This document shows positions 3,197 to 38,093 of a DNA stretch of 49,084 nucleotides, piece after piece. The position numbers were made by a program, and so were the translations under genes. Below the pieces are notes generated by a model, which made no database searches, was not told where the DNA came from, and saw nothing but the letters and a program-made list of their open reading frames with translations. The DNA is from a virus. The stretch is from UHGV virus genome UHGV-1369968; one strand, given 5' to 3'. The stretch's first letter is position 1; each line of letters begins with the position of its first letter.

Positions 3197-3541
3197 ATGT
3201 CAGCAATAGCGAGATGGAGCTATACGCAGCCATGCACAATCTGGCGGCTTACTGGCAAGGATAAGTATGGCAAACCAACATTTGCCGCTCCAGAGTCCAT
3301 CATGTGTGATTATGGCTTCGATAAGAATCTGACCACTGGCACGGCAGGCAATGAGATTGCACAGAAAAACACATTCTGGACGGAATACCAGAATGCGTCT
3401 GTTGGCGACTTCATCATGCTTGGCACCATTACCAGTGCTGACCCTCTGGCCGCTGGAGCTGACCAGATTAGAAACGTCGTGAATTACGGCAATACGCTGG
3501 ACCGCAACGACCTGCCTGATTTTGCGCTGGTAACGGGGTAA
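3197..3541 (+). CDS. putative head-closure / head-tail joining protein
   Basis: About 114 aa, and its position and size are typical of HK97 gp9 / SPP1 gp16-like head-closure proteins. Weak assignment. Confidence 0.4.
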   Translation: MSAIARWSYTQPCTIWRLTGKDKYGKPTFAAPESIMCDYGFDKNLTTGTAGNEIAQKNTFWTEYQNASVGDFIMLGTITSADPLAAGADQIRNVVNYGNTLDRNDLPDFALVTG

Positions 3542-28115: not shown

Positions 28116-28997
28116 ATGACCAATAACCAGTTAACAGACGCGCAAATTTCAAACGCGACACTCATTCGTTTAATTCAATGGGCTGATGAGCATAAAAGCC
28201 ACTATGTTGCATCTGCGTTGCGTGAGCTACAGGAACGTCGCAAGGCTGACAGAGAGCCGGTGGCAGAAGTGGTTTCAATTTATGGCGACCCCGAAGCCTT
28301 TGGGGAGCGAGAGATTAGACCGCTTGTCGGCATTCAGCAAATGCCATACGGGACGAAGCTCTATCGCCACGCGCAGCCAGACGCAAGTCATCTATCACGT
28401 ATTTGCGCGGAATCGTACCAGGTTGTTGGTGCATTGGCGGAGGCGCTCAGAGTTTTTAATGACGTTGGTGTTATTAAGGCACTTGACAATCTGTCTGCTC
28501 AAGAACTGATTCATGATGACGTGCTGCCATTTTCAGCTCCTGAATCTGCGCAGCCAGCGCCGGTAGCCTTTGATGCTATCGACACAAACTTGATTGAATC
28601 CCTTCGCCTGGTTCAGTGCATGCTGGATGACTATCGCGAGCGCAATTATGGTGATGCACAAGGTTGGATTCGCCATATCAATACGCACATGAGCGACTAC
28701 ACTGAAGCTCATGGTGATGATGCCTACTCGGTTCTGCATAACTTAATCACAGCCGCCCCGCAGTCACCCGGCAGTGAACCCGCTACCGTGCCGGGTAAAT
28801 GGATTCCGGTAAGCGAGCGGATTCCAGAAGAAGGCGGCCGTTACTGGTGCTACGTAGAAGAGCAAAATAGTCTGGGGAAAAGTCACTATCAATGGAATTG
28901 CTCCTGGGATGGCGATGTATGGTCTGACAAAGCGCTAACTGGACGTGTTACCCACTGGATGCCGCTGCCAGCAGCTCCACAGGAGTTTAAGCCATGA
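28116..28997 (+). CDS. hypothetical protein with C-terminal DUF551 domain
   Basis: GGAGCC RBS. The C-terminal 'WIPVSERIPEE...THWMPLPAAP' is the DUF551 signature, also in ORF 6230..6517. Confidence 0.55.
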   Translation: MTNNQLTDAQISNATLIRLIQWADEHKSHYVASALRELQERRKADREPVAEVVSIYGDPEAFGEREIRPLVGIQQMPYGTKLYRHAQPDASHLSRICAESYQVVGALAEALRVFNDVGVIKALDNLSAQELIHDDVLPFSAPESAQPAPVAFDAIDTNLIESLRLVQCMLDDYRERNYGDAQGWIRHINTHMSDYTEAHGDDAYSVLHNLITAAPQSPGSEPATVPGKWIPVSERIPEEGGRYWCYVEEQNSLGKSHYQWNCSWDGDVWSDKALTGRVTHWMPLPAAPQEFKP

Positions 28998-29963: not shown

Positions 29964-30111
29964 GAGCATTATGGCTTGCTTTTTGGCATCAATTATTATG
30001 AGCTTAACAAGCATAACCCTACCAAATAATGATTTTACTGGAAGCATCTTTGGCTTGATGTTCTGGTGCATTGGTTGGGTTATTGCTTTTGCGAGGGTGA
30101 GATATGTTTAA
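29911..30111 (+). CDS. small membrane protein
   Basis: Two TM segments. A second 51-aa membrane ORF (30104-30259) follows before TerL. Confidence 0.3.
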   Translation: MRRALSDWRSYWSSRMDKSIMACFLASIIMSLTSITLPNNDFTGSIFGLMFWCIGWVIAFARVRYV

Positions 30112-30248
30112 ACTATCAATGTCACTAATGGCCTGTGCCATGATCATGTTTGCTATGGGTGATAAGTCAAACGAGATTGCATTTGCGATATGGGGCATCA
30201 TGTTCATGATGTCAGCCACAATAATTACTATTGTGGGAGCATCCCGCC

Positions 30249-31673
30249 ATGGCTCGTAAACGCCTGTCCGCACTGGCAATCGAAAAGCTGGAGGCGCAGG
30301 TGGATGATGCACTGACCGATATTGCTGAGTCCGCCATCTTCGGCATCTGCGATATGCAGAAGAACGTCATCAGGCGACTCAGAATGACCGCTGCGGGCGT
30401 TGAGGATGTTACCCATGCAACCACGCAGGCCGACCACTTAATCCCCGCAAAACTCGAAAGGCTGCTTTATCCAAAGCGTAATAAGGTCGTCTTTGGTGGC
30501 CGTGCATCAACCAAAACTCGCACAGTCTGCACCATCCTTACTGAGTCGGCCCGCTTCAGGCCGGAGCGTATTGGATGCTTTCGTGAGATTCAGCAGTCTA
30601 TCGAGGACTCCAGCTATCAGGAGTTGGTAGACGAAATCGACCGAAAAGGAGAATCATCGGAATATCGCTGCATCGACGGCAAGATAACTCACAAACGGAC
30701 GAAATCAAAATTCAGGTTCCGTGGCCTTTATCGCAACATCACCGGCGTCAAGGGTTTTGCCGGGATATCGAAAGCGTGGGTGGAGGAGGCTGAAAACGTC
30801 AGCCAGGCGTCATGGGACATCCTTGAGCCAACCATCCGCGCAGAAGGCTCTGAGATATGGGTGACGTTTAACCCAAACAAAGAAACCGATGCCACGTGGA
30901 CTCAGTGGGTGGCGCCTTATTACGATAAGATGGTTGATGGCATCTATGAGGATGATGACACATTAATCATTGAGTGTAATTACCGCGATAACCCGTGGTT
31001 TTATGACACCCCGCTCCCGGCATCCATGGAGAAAATGAAGGCGGTAGACTTCGACCGATATCTTTGGATTTGGGAAGGGAAATTCAACAAGCGCAGCGAT
31101 GAGCAGGTATTCGGTGGAAAATGGCGCACTGCATCGTTTGAGGTTAAACCTGAATGGCATGGTCCATACCATGGCATGGACTTCGGTTTCTCTGGCGACC
31201 CTGCTGCAATGGTTGAGGTTTGGGTGGAAAACCTGCCCGGCGACCGGCGCAACGTTTATATTAATCGTGAGTATGGCAAGGTTCATCTTGAGATTACCGA
31301 CCACCCGGCAGCAATGGACCAGGCATTTCCGATGGCGCGTAAGGCTCGATGGTATGCCGACTCCTCAAGGCCGGAAACCATCAGTCACATCAAGCGCGCT
31401 GGATTTGATATTCATCCCTGCAACAAGTGGCCTGGCAGTGTTGAGGATGGTGTCACCTGGCTCAGGGGCTGCGACAGCATCATCATTCACGACCGCTGCA
31501 CGGAAATGAAAAACGAGGCTGCGATGTACAGCCACAAGGTCGACAAGAATACCGGCCTTGTGCTGACTGAAATAGTTGATAAATACAACCACTATTGGGA
31601 TGCGGTTCGCTATGCGTTGAACGACTATATCGTACAGCGTGGTTCTGGATGGATTAGAAGGAGCAGGAGATAA
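30249..31673 (+). CDS. terminase large subunit (PBSX/XtmB-type)
   Basis: Walker A-like 'VVFGGRASTKTRT', and the ATPase and nuclease organisation of the Terminase_6 family. Start moved to ATG 30249 (MARKRL), which has a GGGAGC RBS. Confidence 0.85.
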   Translation: MARKRLSALAIEKLEAQVDDALTDIAESAIFGICDMQKNVIRRLRMTAAGVEDVTHATTQADHLIPAKLERLLYPKRNKVVFGGRASTKTRTVCTILTESARFRPERIGCFREIQQSIEDSSYQELVDEIDRKGESSEYRCIDGKITHKRTKSKFRFRGLYRNITGVKGFAGISKAWVEEAENVSQASWDILEPTIRAEGSEIWVTFNPNKETDATWTQWVAPYYDKMVDGIYEDDDTLIIECNYRDNPWFYDTPLPASMEKMKAVDFDRYLWIWEGKFNKRSDEQVFGGKWRTASFEVKPEWHGPYHGMDFGFSGDPAAMVEVWVENLPGDRRNVYINREYGKVHLEITDHPAAMDQAFPMARKARWYADSSRPETISHIKRAGFDIHPCNKWPGSVEDGVTWLRGCDSIIIHDRCTEMKNEAAMYSHKVDKNTGLVLTEIVDKYNHYWDAVRYALNDYIVQRGSGWIRRSRR

Positions 31674-31674
31674 G

Positions 31675-31703
31675 AAAAAGCCCCGATTTCGGGGCTTAAT
31701 TTG
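31675..31703. terminator. bidirectional rho-independent terminator
   Basis: AAAAAGCCCCGATTTCGGGGCTTAATTTG. Confidence 0.75.
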
Positions 31704-31706
31704 TCC

Positions 31707-31931
31707 TTATGCAGAGATTGGGCGAATAGTATACCCATATCCAAGATAAGCATTTCTCTCCTGAAAAGATGAGGCGCGAAGGCGGGCGGCAGCCTCACCC
31801 TTCACGGTTGCAGCAACGTAGTCTGTGGAGTCTGGGCCGTTCTCTACAACTTCGAAAGCCAGTACATTTTTAGTAGTCAGGTCGTATGTATTCATTATCT
31901 CACCCTCATTCACCAGCGGCACCATTGCCAC
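31707..31931 (-). CDS. hypothetical protein (74 aa)
   Basis: GAGGTGG RBS. Promoter TTGACG-N17-TAGATT built from tandem motif copies at 31943-31973. Confidence 0.4.
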   Translation of the reverse strand: MAMVPLVNEGEIMNTYDLTTKNVLAFEVVENGPDSTDYVAATVKGEAAARLRASSFQERNAYLGYGYTIRPISA

Positions 31932-31985
31932 CTCAATGACTACAATCTACGTCAACCATGAACCCACGTCAACATTTATAATAAA

Positions 31986-32276
31986 TTATTTGTAAAGCCA
32001 GCAATGAATCCCCGCATTGCGCATTGCAGCATAAATCACGTCATCAGACACGACCGCCATTGCCACCCTGTCAGCGTCAATCTGCTGGTGCGAAGCCATG
32101 ATGTCATCATAGAAAATATCGTTAGCATGCAGCCACTCATACGCATGCTTTGCCCTCATGATAAGCACATCGTGCCCGGCAGAGTAGAGCGACTTAGCCA
32201 GTGCAACGTTGCCAGCAATGGCATTGCCCTCGGCGTCGCGCAGCACACCATCAAGCTCGAAAATGACACATTTCAT
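31986..32276 (-). CDS. minimal HAD-like protein (96 aa)
   Basis: N-terminal 'KCVIFELDGVL' is HAD motif I (DxDG[TV]), and C-terminal 'AMAVVSDDVIY' is motif IV (hhhDD). Confidence 0.45.
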   Translation of the reverse strand: MKCVIFELDGVLRDAEGNAIAGNVALAKSLYSAGHDVLIMRAKHAYEWLHANDIFYDDIMASHQQIDADRVAMAVVSDDVIYAAMRNAGIHCWLYK

Positions 32277-32364
32277 AAGATTTCTCCGAGAGGTTTCATT
32301 TTAATCTACGCCATGCTAGAATCTACGTCAAGGCGCATTGACATAACTACATCACCGGGGCATC

Positions 32365-32604
32365 ATGAAGGCATACTCATCTTTTTCGTGGGAGCAGAAG
32401 GAGAAAATATACTCACTCGCAAGAGCCGGCGTGTCTGATGAGGCGCTGTGCGAAAGGTACGATGTTGATGAGGCCATTCTGCTGCGCATGTATGATGAAG
32501 TGCTGTGTGAGTTGCAGCGGCGCCGTGGATACAGCGGCCTGAAGACGATTAACGATTTCTTTCGGAATGTTGAGTTAAATAACGATGAGGGTGGTGATTT
32601 ATGA
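32365..32604 (+). CDS. hypothetical protein
   Basis: First gene of the rightward island operon downstream of the motif-bearing region at 32296-32345. Confidence 0.4.
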   Translation: MKAYSSFSWEQKEKIYSLARAGVSDEALCERYDVDEAILLRMYDEVLCELQRRRGYSGLKTINDFFRNVELNNDEGGDL

Positions 32605-32762
32605 GGGATATCGTGTTTATGATTATGGTGAAGTTACCAACAATATTTGCCATTTGTGCGGCTGCGTGGCTGGCATACAACAATAAAGAGGGATGGGGCT
32701 GGTTTCTTTTTGTTGCGGTGCTTGTGACTTCATCTGTAAAGATTGATGATTGAGGTGATGAA

Positions 32763-33251
32763 ATGACAACAATTGCTTGGGATGGGATTACGATTGCTCA
32801 CGATAGCCAGGCCACTGCCGGGAGTCTTATTATGGCTAACCAGCAGAAGTCTTTTGTACTTGATGCCGATGATAGGTTTTTTATTTGCGGTGAGCTGGCT
32901 GTATTGATTGTTGGTAGTGGTGCTGCTGGTGATGAGCGATACGCGAAGCAGTTCATGCGGCGGAACGTTGATGACATCATGGAGATACCAGAAGAACTGG
33001 ACTTTACTCAATGGGTATTCACAGATAAAGGGAATTGTTTTGCCATCCAGAAGATTCCTGGCAATAAATATCCGGCGGTTTACGCAGTAATTCCACCGCT
33101 TGCTGCTGGTTGCGGTAGAGACTTTGCTATGACCGCTATGTATCTTGGGCAGACAGCTGAACAGGCGGTAATTACCGCGTCAGTTCTGGATGCCTTCACT
33201 GACTCGAATGTTAAAACATATAAGTTTAAGCATGGTGAGGGGATGAAATGA
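32763..33251 (+). CDS. HslV/proteasome-beta-like N-terminal-nucleophile hydrolase
   Basis: 'MTTIAWDGITIAHDSQATAG' matches the HslV N-terminus (TTIVSV..GDGQATLG) with Thr exposed after Met removal. A Lys is present at the Lys33-equivalent position ('QQKSF'). Further matches are 'VGSGAAGDERYA' to AGFAGGTADAF, and 'AAGCGRDFAMTAMYL' to IGSGGPYAQAAARAL. Confidence 0.6.
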   Translation: MTTIAWDGITIAHDSQATAGSLIMANQQKSFVLDADDRFFICGELAVLIVGSGAAGDERYAKQFMRRNVDDIMEIPEELDFTQWVFTDKGNCFAIQKIPGNKYPAVYAVIPPLAAGCGRDFAMTAMYLGQTAEQAVITASVLDAFTDSNVKTYKFKHGEGMK

Positions 33252-33415
33252 TTATTGAAGATGAAACCAAAGCGCCAATGTGCGCAATATCTGTTTGGTT
33301 TGACTCTGAATCGGTTGTTACGCAGGGGCATGACACTATTATTATCGACAAGCACCAGGCCGCGCAGCTTATCGAAGCCCTGCAACGCTGGGTTGATGGC
33401 GAGGAGATTAAGTGA
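33248..33415 (+). CDS. small hypothetical protein (55 aa)
   Basis: ATGA overlap with the HslV-like stop, and TGATG overlap with the next gene. Confidence 0.3.
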   Translation: MIIEDETKAPMCAISVWFDSESVVTQGHDTIIIDKHQAAQLIEALQRWVDGEEIK

Positions 33416-33603
33416 TGAGCATTTACTTTATTCATGCGGAAGCTATTCTCAGCAATGGCTGCGTTGCCGAGAAGGTCGGGAAAGTGGTAATTGCTACTAA
33501 TGCGGTTGCCGCGCTTGCTGAGTTTTGGTCTGAGGGTAGCGTGCAGGAATTAAAAGACCAAGGCATCAAAGTTGTCATCGACAAATTCGAAAAGGTGGAA
33601 TGA
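33415..33603 (+). CDS. small hypothetical protein
   Basis: Coupled within the island operon. Confidence 0.35.
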   Translation: MSIYFIHAEAILSNGCVAEKVGKVVIATNAVAALAEFWSEGSVQELKDQGIKVVIDKFEKVE

Positions 33604-33824
33604 TGAAAGCCGTCAAAACAATCCTGTTCTGCATCATCAACCCGCACCTGATTGTGATGCTGATATTCGCTGCCATGCTTATTGGCGCAAGAAAGTCGCT
33701 TTATTATCTTTCCGATAAGCTGGATGACGCGGCGAGTTATATTCAGAATGTTGACCATAAACTCGGCGCGAAGTCGTATCCCGCATGGTTCAGATCGCTT
33801 GTTGATGATGAGGTAAATAAATGA
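33600..33824 (+). CDS. small membrane protein
   Basis: TM 'LIVMLIFAAMLIGA', with an ATGA overlap. Confidence 0.4.
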   Translation: MMKAVKTILFCIINPHLIVMLIFAAMLIGARKSLYYLSDKLDDAASYIQNVDHKLGAKSYPAWFRSLVDDEVNK

Positions 33825-34024
33825 AACGATTCCTTTTGTCATGGGCATCCCTTTTTTTAGTGCTTATGGCATGTCTCGCTCTCGCCTTCCCGGTATGCTG
33901 GTTCATCAAGTGGCAGCCACCGATGTTGAGCGATATCATGAATATCGGCGTACTGCGCATTGCAGTGTTCATGCTGGTTGCGTCTATGGTTGGCGCGTTG
34001 TTTATTAGTAAAATTGAGGAATAG
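33821..34024 (+). CDS. small membrane protein (2 TM)
   Basis: 'LLSWASLFLVLMACLALAF' and 'IAVFMLVASMVGALFI'. Confidence 0.4.
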   Translation: MKRFLLSWASLFLVLMACLALAFPVCWFIKWQPPMLSDIMNIGVLRIAVFMLVASMVGALFISKIEE

Positions 34025-34132
34025 CAGCCAAGCGCTTTATAATAAATTGCGGATAGGAAGGCCATCCGACAAGTGCGTTAGTCAGCGCATTTCCGCAATC
34101 CTATATTGACTCCTAATGACAAGGTATAAATC

Positions 34133-34615
34133 ATGAATTGGAATGAAATATTTTCTTACTCCGATGGAAATCTTATATGGGAGAGGGTTAACAGGAATAG
34201 ATATAATAAGCCTGGCGATATTGCTGGCAGGCTAAACACGACAAACGGTTACTTGTATGTAAAAGTAAATCAGGAAGTGAGATCGGTTCATAACATCATA
34301 TGGGAGATGCACAACGGGAAGGTGCCTGACGATATGGAAATTGACCACATAAACCACATTAGAACAGATAACCGCATTGAAAATTTAAGGATTGTTTCTC
34401 ATCAGCAAAACGCTATGAACAGGAGCAAAACATTAAGGAACACATCGGGCGTTGTTGGCGTATCTTGGTGCAAGATAAAAGGGAAATGGTATGCGTACAT
34501 AAAGAAAGATGGAGTAATGCATAACCTTGGGAGATACACCAATTTTGAGGATGCTGCTCTGGCAAGATCGTCTGCCGAAAAGAGGCTTGGCTTCCATGAG
34601 AACCACGGCTCTTGA
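34133..34615 (+). CDS. HNH homing endonuclease with C-terminal AP2 domain
   Basis: 'EIDHINHIRTDNRIENLRIVSHQQN' is the HNH_3 motif, and 'SGVVGVSWCKIKGKWYAYIKKDGVMHNLGRYTNFEDAALA' is the AP2 motif. Inserted between the TerL island and portal. Confidence 0.8.
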   Translation: MNWNEIFSYSDGNLIWERVNRNRYNKPGDIAGRLNTTNGYLYVKVNQEVRSVHNIIWEMHNGKVPDDMEIDHINHIRTDNRIENLRIVSHQQNAMNRSKTLRNTSGVVGVSWCKIKGKWYAYIKKDGVMHNLGRYTNFEDAALARSSAEKRLGFHENHGS

Positions 34616-34652
34616 TGATATAATGACCCTTACAGAAATGTGAGGGTTTTTT

Positions 34653-36104
34653 ATGAGCGATAAGATCGCAGCACTGAATGCATACATTCAGCAAAGAGTA
34701 GCAAACAATAGCCGGGTTATAGAAAGCCAGAGGCGTGAGTTTAGCGGTGTAAACATAGACCAAAAGCATACCCGACTGTATGTCGAATGTGGCTATCCTG
34801 AAGAAATCACCGCCGAGATGTTCCGCTATGCCTATGAGCGCTATGCACCCGCTACAGCTGGCGTTAACCGCGTGCTTGATAAGTGCTGGCAGACTCCGCC
34901 GCAAATCCTTCAGGAGGGCGCCGATGATAAAGCAAGCACTCCATGGGAGAAGGAAGCCAATAAACTGTTTAAGCGCGCTGCGCCATTCATCAAGGATGCA
35001 GACCGCCGCAACCTCATCAACCGCTATTCCGGCCTCATCCTGCAAATCCGTGATGGAAAGCAATGGAATGAGCCTGTGGACACCACGAAAACAAAACGCA
35101 TCAAGGATACTGCCATTGTCCGCTACATTCCGGCATGGGAGGAGCAGCTTCGTGTTAGCGAGTGGGAAAATGACGAAGCCAGCGAGGACTATGGTCAGCC
35201 GAAGATGTACGAATATCAGGAGTCGGTAGTCGGCGCCTGCAACAGCAACGGCAAACCAACGCGCTCCCTGAGCATTCATCCCGATCGCGTTATCGTATTT
35301 GCCGAGGGTGCGATGGATGGTTCCATTTACTCTGGTGTCCCACTTCTGCGTGCCGGGTATAACCACCTCATCGACATGGCGAAAGTCACTGGTTCAAGCG
35401 CCGAGGGATTCCTGAAGAATGCAAGCCGACAGCTCAACGTTAATTATAATAAAGACAGCGTTTCCGCTCAGTCTCTGGCGCAGCAAATGGGTGTTCCGCT
35501 GGAAGAACTGGCAGATGTGCTCAATGAGGATGTGGCGCGCCTGAATGAGGCGATTGACGCAGCGATGTTCACGATGGGCGCTGATGTCAAGGTGCTCTCA
35601 GTGACGCCAGCCGACCCAGGGCCAACGTGGACTATCGCAGCCAACCAGTTTGCAGCATCCATCAAGAAGCCATTCACTATTCTGTTTGGTCAGCAGACTG
35701 GCCGCCTTGCATCCGATGAGGATAAAACCGACGACGCCATGAGCGCCAAGCAGCGCCGTGAGGACTGGCTGGATTACATCATCTCGGTATTCATTGACCG
35801 GATGATTTCCTTTGGCATTCTGGATAAGGCGCCAGAAAGCGGTTATTACTGCAAATGGGATGACCTGCTTGCACCTTCCGAGCTGAACAAGGCCGACCTG
35901 CTGGTCAAACTTGCCACTGCAAATAAATCCGTGTTCGATGCAGGGCAGATGGCCCTGATGACCGCAGATGAGATGCGTGGCATTGTTGGCATGGAGCCGC
36001 TGAAAACGCAGCTTCCTGACGGATTACAGGAAGGTCAACAGCAAGACCAGCAATCGCAGCAAGACCAACAGCAGGGCCAGACCGATGCGCCTCCTCAAAA
36101 TTAA
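34653..36104 (+). CDS. portal protein
   Basis: 483 aa immediately upstream of the Mu-F-like head morphogenesis gene, with an acidic Gln-rich C-terminus. Typical size and position. Confidence 0.7.
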
Positions 36105-36132
36105 TGCCCGGCTTCCGCAGCCAAAATTAAGC

Positions 36133-37029
36133 ATGAGCCTGACAGACCCACTCGGCGCAGCGGGTCGCGTCAACAAGATGGTGCGCGATGTTGACGCCAG
36201 GTATGTGACGCTAAAATCGCAGGTTGCCGAGCTGTTCCGCACGATTCCTGTGGCAACCGGCAATGCTGAGGCTGGAAATTATTATTATGATTTCTCTGCC
36301 TACCGCGCATCGACATTCTTTGATGAGCTTCAGCGCATTCTTGATGGTCAGCTGCTGGAAGGTGATAATTTCACGCATGGCAGGATGTGGGCATCATCCT
36401 ATGTCAGCGACGCCATGTACGCCGGTACGCAGAAGGCAAACTCAGACCTTGGCGACCTGTCGTCGGCATACAAAGACAGCAGGCCGCTTGCTGAAATCCT
36501 GTACTCTCAGCCGTATCTCGACAGGCTTCAGTTAGCGTACACGCGCACGTATAACGACTGGGGTGGACTTTCAGATTACACGCGACAGCAGGTGGCGGAA
36601 GTCATCACTGCTGGCATTGCAAATGGCGATGCGCCGGGCGTGGTTGAGCAAAACATCGTTAACCGCATGGATGTATCAAGGAGTTACGCGCGCTCTATTG
36701 CTCAGACTGAAATTACCAACACCCTGCGCGAAGCCAACAGGCGCGAAGTGAAAGAGGCGCAAGTCACGCTGGGCATGGATACCATCATGCTCTGGCAGTC
36801 GGCACTCATGAAAACCACCCGCGTTAATCACGCTGCACGTCACGGCAAATACTACACACCAGAAGAAATTGACGAGTTTTATAGCGAAGGAGCTAACCGC
36901 CGCAACTGTCACTGCAGCCAGACCCCGGCGCTTGTAATGGATGGCAAGCCAGTGATACTTGAGCGGACGCAGGAAAAGCTGGATAAGCAAAGAGAGGCAT
37001 GGCAGGGAGCGCATAAAAAAGCCGCCTGA
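36133..37029 (+). CDS. head morphogenesis protein (Mu gpF / SPP1 gp7 family)
   Basis: 'RVNHAARHGKYYTPEE...NCHCSQTP' matches the conserved Mu-F-like C-terminal block. The start is uncertain (36085 TTG/ATG alternatives). Confidence 0.7.
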   Translation: MSLTDPLGAAGRVNKMVRDVDARYVTLKSQVAELFRTIPVATGNAEAGNYYYDFSAYRASTFFDELQRILDGQLLEGDNFTHGRMWASSYVSDAMYAGTQKANSDLGDLSSAYKDSRPLAEILYSQPYLDRLQLAYTRTYNDWGGLSDYTRQQVAEVITAGIANGDAPGVVEQNIVNRMDVSRSYARSIAQTEITNTLREANRREVKEAQVTLGMDTIMLWQSALMKTTRVNHAARHGKYYTPEEIDEFYSEGANRRNCHCSQTPALVMDGKPVILERTQEKLDKQREAWQGAHKKAA

Positions 37030-37235: not shown

Positions 37236-38093
37236 CTAGCTCTCTAGTTTCACGCCTGGAATTTTACCGGCTGCTATGGCGTAGTAAATGTCAATAGAGT
37301 TTTGCGATGTTGAAACACCAGCATCAAGAATCTCAAATAACGCCTCAATAGCCGCATATCGCTTATTGTATTCTTCTGATCGGATGGGTCGGAAAATGGT
37401 ATTGCTCAGGTGGCGAATTCCGTTATCTGAAGTCCATACGCCTTCACCATAGTAAGCAATAATTGTTCCTCCGTACCACTTGCCGGCTTCGATTGCGGGA
37501 TGACCAGCATCTGTCTGCTTGCATGTATATTCGATACGACACCCAACCGGTGGCAAGCCTTCGCCATTCCATACCGTCTCAGGAGCCTGGCCGATGCACT
37601 CATTCAGGTCAGCTTCATCATCAGCATCGGTTTCTTCCTGCGGCTGGTGCAGGCGGTAGGCCACAATTGCATAAGGCTCCGTCTTCACGCAAAAATCCCA
37701 TCGCAAATCTTTAGCTCGCTCTGGTCTGCTGCTTTCGCTTCCATCTTGCATTTTGTAGTCCACGACATCATTTGGATGCACCGGACACTCCCCGCCACCC
37801 CACTCAATCCAGCCGTCATTTTTGGCAGCCAGCGCGGCTTCGTACTGTTCGCGGGTGATGATGGCGGTCGCCCAGTCATCAGCGATGACATCATACTTTT
37901 TCACTTTCACATCGGCATGGCCTGTGCCGTTTGCGGCTAACCATATATTCTTTTTAAGGTACGGCTCTCTGAAGTATCCGAATGCAACGCCTTTATAGAT
38001 ACTGCTTCCATTATCCTGTGTTATGCATTTAACTCCATCAGGCCATTGCCAGCCATTCAGTCCATCCACAACCAGCATATCAATCAGCTTCAT
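37236..38093 (-). CDS. hypothetical protein (285 aa, Trp/Gly-rich, no recognisable domain)
   Basis: Long clean ORF coupled to neighbours, located inside the structural region on the opposite strand. Confidence 0.5.
   Translation of the reverse strand: MKLIDMLVVDGLNGWQWPDGVKCITQDNGSSIYKGVAFGYFREPYLKKNIWLAANGTGHADVKVKKYDVIADDWATAIITREQYEAALAAKNDGWIEWGGGECPVHPNDVVDYKMQDGSESSRPERAKDLRWDFCVKTEPYAIVAYRLHQPQEETDADDEADLNECIGQAPETVWNGEGLPPVGCRIEYTCKQTDAGHPAIEAGKWYGGTIIAYYGEGVWTSDNGIRHLSNTIFRPIRSEEYNKRYAAIEALFEILDAGVSTSQNSIDIYYAIAAGKIPGVKLES

Follow-up and report, generated by a model that had tools for sequence, protein, structure and literature searches.

Several small relatives of the bacterial proteasome-type protease HslV have been described. 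The Betaproteobacteria proteasome homolog (BPH) is a descendant of HslV that has no ATPase partner; it keeps helices H1 and H2, carries a long acidic pore loop and assembles into heptameric double rings (PMC5777263). The PPH family comprises proteins of about 140 residues from tailed phages and prophages that are placed in 'group I' with HslV and BPH and that have neither a propeptide nor the C-terminal elements S12 and H5 (Fuchs et al. 2021, PMC8665760). Helix H2 is missing only in PPH, in its relative RPC and in connectase, and a C-terminal extension sets RPC apart from PPH (PMC8665760). Here we examine a gene of the virus genome UHGV-1369968 (49,084 nucleotides, the whole of which we call the window) that occupies positions 32763-33251 of the plus strand and encodes 162 amino acids plus a stop codon. 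An earlier note, made from the sequence of this window, had proposed that the gene encodes an HslV/proteasome-beta-like hydrolase with an N-terminal threonine. By the traits described for the family (PMC8665760), we assign the predicted protein to PPH and do not regard it as an HslV orthologue.

The open reading frame (ORF) bears the marks of a genuine gene. Its translation begins M-T-T-I-A-W-D-G, exactly as the earlier note quoted it, and a Shine-Dalgarno sequence that was graded strong (GAGGTGA, 32752-32758, plus strand, as read from the sequence) lies four nucleotides 5ʹ of the ATG. Pairwise comparison by the Nei-Gojobori method gave a dN/dS of 0.069 (dS 0.43) with the orthologue of Klebsiella phage KlebP_265 and of 0.058 (dS 1.04) with that of Salmonella phage SeSz-2. 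Given dN/dS values of 0.05-0.07 and a strong Shine-Dalgarno sequence, the ORF is therefore a real, functional coding sequence under strong purifying selection.

The relationship of its product to HslV and the proteasome is visible only to profiles and fold comparison, not to pairwise searches. When the protein was searched against the PDB with phmmer, only a chance match was returned (E=1.6), and tblastn with Escherichia coli HslV did not recover the ORF from the window. Profile scans with the single sequence were divided: Pfam Proteasome (PF00227) scored below threshold (13.4 bits, where the gathering score is 22.4; E=0.059), and no NCBIfam family, the HslV model included, was matched even at E<=10, whereas PHROG 1040, 'peptidase HslV family', was matched at E=3.4e-27.

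To represent the family, an alignment of 93 sequences (A2) was assembled from two rounds of homolog searches. Searched against the PDB, the A2 profile matched proteasome beta5i (E=4.6e-12), BPH (4.2e-10) and HslV (4.5e-9), as well as beta5 and beta2, and in the HMMER alignment the N-terminal T-T of the family falls on the mature Thr1-Thr2 of beta5i. Alignment of A2 with HslV of E. coli K-12 (from NC_000913.3) by hhalign gave a probability of 95.9% and E=5.3e-9. This alignment reproduced the motif pairings with HslV that the earlier note had proposed, namely HDSQAT with GDGQAT, K29 with Lys33, and VGSGAAGD with GFAGGTAD, and likewise that of AAGCGRDFAMTAM with AIGSGGPYAQAAA. Both hhalign and a fold search place the identity between the 162-residue protein and HslV at about 23-24%. 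At the level of sequence profiles, then, the similarity to HslV and the proteasome is well beyond chance.

A structure predicted for the monomer with AlphaFold2 (AF2) is of high confidence (pLDDT 93.2, pTM 0.88). It shows the alpha-beta-beta-alpha sandwich of N-terminal nucleophile (Ntn) hydrolases with the nucleophile at the mature N-terminus, and its fold is that of proteasome beta subunits and HslV minus helix H2. The earlier note had stated that its proposal would fall if no profile matched and if the predicted fold lacked such a sandwich with an N-terminal Thr. Neither outcome occurred, and the identification as an HslV/proteasome-beta-like N-terminal-threonine hydrolase is upheld by profiles, by confident structure prediction, by fold search and by active-site conservation.

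The features that separate PPH from its relatives were found in this protein as well. It has the proteasome-beta-like core with Thr1, Asp17, Lys33 and the oxyanion Gly47 (proteasome numbering). In the AF2 model a single helix (residues 58-66) lies between strands 44-52 (S5) and 81-87 (S6), so that H2 is absent, and helices 119-127 and 132-142 correspond to H3 and H4. The place of H2 and the pore loop is taken by a short acidic linker, RNVDDIMEIPEELD (residues 67-80; 32961-33002, plus strand), whose 14 residues include six acidic and one basic. Across 254 family members aligned with MAFFT, on which all conservation counts below are based, the linker between H1 and strand S6 has a median length of 15 residues (interquartile range 13-17) and is therefore too short to hold H2; it is net negative in 70% of them. 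The protein is compact and single-domain, starting M-T-T without a propeptide and ending its last strand at residue 156 of 162, and it has neither H5 nor a C-terminal extension of the RPC kind. The PPH relatives listed are mostly 136-165 residues long. Finally, the gene lies in a siphophage genome and has homologs in 99 phage records; further homologs occur on contigs with phage-type genes or with runs of small unannotated ORFs. Relative to a typical PPH of about 140 residues, the window protein is enlarged by clade-specific insertions, the main one at about residues 35-48, which extends the hairpin before strand 44-52, and smaller ones elsewhere.

All active-site positions of the proteasome could be mapped in the window protein by computed alignments to beta5i and HslV (codons below are on the plus strand). 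Thr2 (32766-32768), which aligns with Thr1 of beta5i and T2 of HslV, is predicted to become Thr1 once the initiator Met is removed. This position is Thr in 248 of the 254 relatives and Ser in five, and 229 of the sequences start MTT. Asp14 (32802-32804) is the equivalent of proteasome Asp17, aligns with the Asp of the HslV GDGQ motif and is Asp in 253 of 254, whereas Lys29 (32847-32849), the equivalent of Lys33 in the proteasome and HslV, is Lys in 242. Gly53 (32919-32921) aligns with Gly47 of beta5i, the oxyanion-hole residue; it is at least 90% conserved in A2, and the larger, less certain 254-sequence alignment has G in 154 and A in 90. The segment Asp143 to Thr146 (33189-33200) aligns with D-S-Y-S of beta5i and supplies the equivalents of Asp166 and Ser169. 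Asp143 is Asp in 245 relatives, and position 146 is Thr in 187, Ser in 53 and Cys in 10.

One catalytic position departs from the family. Gly116-Cys117-Gly118 (33108-33116) aligns with the GSG of beta5i and HslV, which is G-S129-G in the proteasome, and each of the two glycines is Gly in 253 of the 254 sequences. Position 117 (codon 33111-33113) is Ser in 235, Thr in 10 and Cys in eight, and the clade of the window protein forms the Cys group. In a 12-sequence alignment (A1), Cys at this position is confined to close relatives that are 86-95% identical. Proteasome Ser129 helps to position Thr1, and the change from Ser to Cys may alter catalysis or confer redox sensitivity.

Methionine aminopeptidase accepts Thr as the second residue, and exposure of Thr1 without a propeptide is therefore plausible. 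HslV of E. coli starts in the same manner, with fMet(GTG)-Thr-Thr-Ile.

Phages often encode inhibitors of host proteases, and the earlier note had included among its three suggested mechanisms a decoy that disables the host HslUV protease. Such a catalytically irrelevant poison subunit would titrate HslU or co-assemble with HslV and thereby stabilize substrates such as SulA or RcsA, and the common fold could in principle permit mixed assemblies. A decoy needs no active site, though, and Thr1, Asp17, Lys33, G-S-G and Asp166 are near-invariant among 254 diverse relatives, a pattern in the sequences that speaks for an enzyme with catalytic activity rather than for a pure decoy. The determinants for docking onto HslU are also absent, identity to HslV is low, and without H2 a mixed assembly with HslV seems unlikely. 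We therefore disfavour this mechanism and consider it very improbable.

A second suggested mechanism, recruitment of the host HslU (ClpY), can be judged from residues of HslV whose roles are known. In HslV, Arg86, Arg89 and Lys90 form a basic cluster at the pore entrance, at the junction of H2 and S7; mutating the cluster cripples the enzyme, and HslU binding remodels it (PMC5777263). We confirmed these positions on the real E. coli HslV sequence, and the segment that holds them, DWRTDRMLRK, faces a gap in PPH in the hhalign alignment. The pocket that receives the HslU C-terminus in E. coli and Haemophilus influenzae HslV consists of Phe54, Phe57, Ala79/Lys80 and Gln114 (PMC6429459). Four of these residues were mapped, with Phe54, Phe57 and Ala79/Lys80 replaced in the window protein by Arg59, Lys62 and Leu79/Asp80. 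As far as the alignment and the model indicate, the HslV elements that communicate with HslU would thus be missing from the window protein. Its acidic linker instead recalls the acidic pore loop of BPH, which is independent of an ATPase, and not the basic cluster of HslV.

The earlier note reported no HslU-like gene in the window, and this holds: tblastn with E. coli HslU found nothing better than E=2.8, and Walker-A motifs occur only in the ORFs for a DNA helicase and for the tape measure protein. When an AAA+ partner was sought beside PPH genes in eight other contexts, no annotation or Pfam match to one was seen, many of the neighbours being unannotated. The absence of HslU beside phage HslV-like genes had been noted before in Salmonella jumbo phage pSal-SNUABM-04, which is reported to carry two such genes, ORF 1 and ORF 116, and no HslU (PMC7823757).

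The N-terminal Thr (after the predicted loss of Met), Lys33 and GSG features are shared by the window protein and HslV. In one rival explanation PPH would replace host HslV, such that hexameric rings of the HslV type dock on host HslU and redirect this unfoldase to substrates chosen by the phage. This explanation is disfavoured by the loss of H2, by the gap that faces the H2-S7 cluster, by the unconserved pocket for the HslU C-terminus, by the lack of any matching NCBIfam HslV model and of an adjacent hslU gene, and by the A2 profile, which matches HslV no more closely than it does beta5 or BPH. We regard replacement of host HslV as improbable, although less so than the decoy.

Comparison with the remaining members of the superfamily also places the window protein apart. 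BPH retains H1 and H2, whereas H2 is absent from our model; the matched BPH chains, at 185-201 residues, are longer; and BPH genes are chromosomal and lie in stress-related operons, whereas PPH genes are phage-borne. The beta subunits of the 20S proteasome (beta5/beta5i and archaeal PsmB) provide the best profile match, and their catalytic constellation maps onto the window protein one to one. Unlike these subunits, the window protein has no propeptide, autoprocessing, H2, H5 or alpha-subunit partner, and it falls about 40 residues short of the matched mature beta chains (200-204 residues).

The reading that we consider most likely, and in which we have reasonable but not firm confidence, is that the protein is a catalytically active accessory Thr1 hydrolase that acts on some target independently of HslU. 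Of the mechanisms that had been suggested earlier, this corresponds to the third, a self-contained peptidase, and is the best fit to the data. Host methionine aminopeptidase would remove Met1, as in E. coli HslV, to expose Thr1 as a nucleophile that has its own alpha-amine. The enzyme would then function as a Thr hydrolase without host HslU, since it lacks both the H2/pore-loop element of HslV and the residues of the pocket for the HslU C-tail, and its target would be a specific host or phage protein that is attacked during infection. It could work either as an oligomer that assembles by itself, as BPH does, or in small oligomers in the manner of connectase. Removal of Met, catalytic activity, independence from HslU and the oligomeric state are steps that we infer. 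The two paralogues of phage pSal-SNUABM-04 raise the additional possibility of hetero-oligomeric phage assemblies that resemble proteasomes.

Several points weigh against an active, HslU-independent hydrolase. BPH keeps all active-site residues yet is inert in standard peptidase assays (PMC5777263), and conserved residues are therefore no proof of peptidase activity. The residue equivalent to Ser129 is Cys in the clade of the window protein, as in only eight of 254 relatives, and may alter catalysis. Independence from HslU is deduced from an alignment and a monomer model, and the assignment to PPH, whose published reference protein is WP_042125023.1, was made by described traits. Moreover, we found no experimental characterization of any PPH in the searchable literature.

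Two more specific proposals for how such an enzyme might work can be entertained. In the bolder version, the protein would be a self-sufficient viral 'mini-proteasome', an HslU-independent Thr1 enzyme that cuts or ligates one host target and that adopts a non-canonical assembly because H2 is missing. The target could be a stress-response or anti-phage protein. We advance this only tentatively and think it rather unlikely in its full form. If true, this PPH would be the first viral protein of the proteasome family to have a defined function. Alternatively, the protein might operate in the manner of connectase, which shares the absence of H2, as a sequence-specific transpeptidase or ligase or as a processing enzyme that makes a single cut, and would then be a monomer or small oligomer and not a degradative ring. 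This alternative appears quite improbable to us, somewhat more so than replacement of host HslV.

The phage lineage in which the gene resides offers an informative comparison. The large ORFs of the window are those of a typical siphophage and encode a tape measure protein, tail proteins, helicases, an exonuclease, a major head-like protein, the terminase large subunit (TerL) and a portal protein. The region from TerL to portal (30000-36200) matches 153 phage records, mostly of Klebsiella and Salmonella siphophages. These relatives include Klebsiella phages 6991, the VLCpiS13 series, KlebP_265 and MK54, Aeromonas phage pIS4-A (genus Roufvirus) and Salmonella phage SeSz-2 (genus Skatevirus). Of these, KlebP_265 and SeSz-2 carry the PPH gene (94% and 90% identity, respectively), 6991, pIS4-A and MK54 lack it, and a PPH that is at least 90% identical occurs in 14 phage records. 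In other phage groups, the homolog of Jerseyvirus sits with early or accessory genes before the lysis cassette, and that of SPN3US is gene 1, beside tRNAs. A Jedunavirus has it in a small insertion of opposite orientation in the tail module, and a metagenomic phage has it after its replication genes. Such scattered placement is typical of an optional accessory gene and excludes an essential role in head morphogenesis.

The same distribution bears on a further explanation, in which the protein is an enzyme of head morphogenesis such as a prohead or scaffold protease. The position of the gene between TerL and portal, followed by a head-morphogenesis gene, is what would suggest such a role. Against it, phages 6991, pIS4-A and MK54 have the same TerL, portal and head genes without PPH, only about 14 records carry it compared with the 153 that are related, and homologs elsewhere lie among early genes, beside tRNAs or inside the tail module. 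In addition, between TerL and PPH there are a bidirectional terminator and a gene on the opposite strand. We find this explanation the least credible of those considered, and the prohead-protease reading was rejected since PPH is optional among close relatives.

Beyond this lineage, the observed representation suggests that the PPH family is very large. An exhaustive search with the A2 profile matched 14,527 clusters (formed at 50% identity) at E<=1e-3, of which 10,318 were matched at E<=1e-10 and 1,219 at E<=1e-30, and 39 viral models in BFVD were matched by the PPH profile at E<=1e-3.

The gap of 2979 base pairs between TerL (30231-31673) and portal (34653-36104), as delimited by Pfam and PHROGs, constitutes a hypervariable accessory slot (31674-34652). 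Its GC content is 0.39-0.49, compared with 0.50-0.55 in the flanks. The earlier note had viewed the content of this gap as an island inserted between genes that are normally contiguous. The slot is a feature of the whole lineage and not a one-off insertion, as it is present with differing content in all relatives examined (KlebP_265, 6991, pIS4-A, MK54 and SeSz-2). In four Roufvirus-like relatives it opens with the same minus-strand gene for 96 residues, then the same plus-strand ORF for 79 residues, followed by variable small ORFs, and the slot genes assort as a mosaic among relatives.

Just after TerL lies a terminator-like hairpin (31678-31697, both strands) with a perfect stem of eight base pairs, six of them G-C, and the sequence AAGCCCCG-ATTT-CGGGGCTT. 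The hairpin is located between the convergent TerL and 96-residue genes, and read-through from TerL into the run of small genes that includes PPH is therefore unlikely. The 96-residue gene (31986-32276, minus strand) encodes a truncated protein like HAD/polynucleotide-kinase-phosphatase proteins (phrog_415, E=1.4e-11) that had no Pfam or PDB sequence match. The earlier note had counted it as part of the island; it lies on the strand opposite to PPH. As it is 96-99% conserved in four relatives, with or without PPH, the protein is probably functional. HAD enzymes normally carry the motif D-x-D-x-T/V; the N-terminal motif of this protein is F-E-L-D-G-V, in which the nucleophile Asp has apparently been replaced by Glu, and a role as a phosphatase may be doubted.

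The plus-strand run begins with a 79-residue ORF (32365-32604; phrog_13301, E=2e-40, function unassigned) that is 99-100% conserved among relatives, whether or not they carry PPH. For its description as regulator-like in the earlier note, the only match was to HTH_Tnp_1 and was below threshold (E=0.13). A hydrophobic ORF of 50 residues (32601-32753, plus strand) with a weak match to phrog_14810 (E=5e-4) follows. It was not found in any of the five relatives compared and could be a recent insertion or spurious. This ORF has two hydrophobic segments and fills about 130 extra nucleotides between the 79-residue ORF and PPH; the corresponding gap in KlebP_265 is only 31 nucleotides. Downstream (3ʹ) of PPH are four small plus-strand ORFs of 55, 63, 74 and 67 residues (33248-34024), which belong to PHROG families of unassigned function.

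These neighbouring small ORFs exist as previously described, and stop and start codons overlap at 32601/32604, 33248/33251, 33412/33415, 33600/33603 and 33821/33824, an arrangement that suggests translational coupling along the run. The best sigma-70-like match in a promoter scan (32338-32366) overlaps the start codon of the 79-residue ORF and so does not mark out a transcription unit, and the co-transcription stated in the earlier note is putative. Among the five relatives, no small ORF that was compared is present only where PPH is, and each of the four downstream ORFs assorts independently of PPH. A dedicated PPH partner among the small ORFs was rejected on account of this independent assortment and of the heterogeneity of the eight other contexts. 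Neither PPH nor any of seven neighbouring ORFs matched a PADLOC defence model, and a role in a known defence system is therefore not supported.

The 55-residue ORF (33248-33415) appears from its sequence to mark a recombination junction, the right edge of the PPH cassette, and carries the signature of mosaicism. Only its C-terminal stretch of about 25 residues is conserved (80-85%) in phages without PPH, where this stretch ends a different small gene (3254-3328 in locus L006, 2202-2276 in L007 and 2608-2685 in L008).

At the far end of the slot, just 5ʹ of portal, is a gene that the earlier note did not mention, encoding an HNH endonuclease with HNH_3 and AP2-like domains (34133-34615, plus strand; PF13392, E=1.3e-20; phrog_99, E=4e-62). 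With a markedly low GC content of 0.385-0.42, its presence in 6991 alone of the relatives (97%) and its absence from KlebP_265, pIS4-A and MK54, it looks like a mobile homing endonuclease gene. Directly before the portal ATG at 34653 lie a site that resembles a promoter (34596-34624) and a hairpin that resembles a terminator (34625-34648).

Outside the slot, two larger accessory proteins of unassigned function are encoded at 28116-28997 (plus strand) and 37236-38093 (minus strand), with matches to phrog_60, phrog_7798 and others. The C-terminus of the former resembles DUF551, and DUF551 genes occur beside or near PPH in Jedunavirus BUCT_49532 and Jerseyvirus FSL SP-101. This proximity may be coincidental among accessory genes.

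The identification of the gene as PPH is correct but already known, as the family has a name in the literature (PMC8665760) and close relatives of the protein carry similar labels. The proteins of VLCpiS13d (97% identical) and VLCpiS13a are annotated as 'peptidase HslV family protein', and that of KlebP_265 as 'HslV family protease proteolytic subunit-like protein'. To a specialist, the identification would come as no surprise. The label 'peptidase HslV family' implies dependence on HslU, which the sequence and the model argue against, and such annotations should be read with caution.

The window thus adds no new kind of element. It does provide a clean, intact and apparently well-expressed PPH in a cultivable lineage of Klebsiella and Salmonella siphophages. 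Viral enzymes of the proteasome family have been catalogued, but the searchable literature holds no characterization of them. Near-isogenic relatives that lack PPH offer a practical way into the question of how a minimal proteasome homolog benefits a phage, and the sister phages of Klebsiella and Salmonella that naturally carry or lack PPH would be a good system for a first functional study of a viral proteasome homolog.

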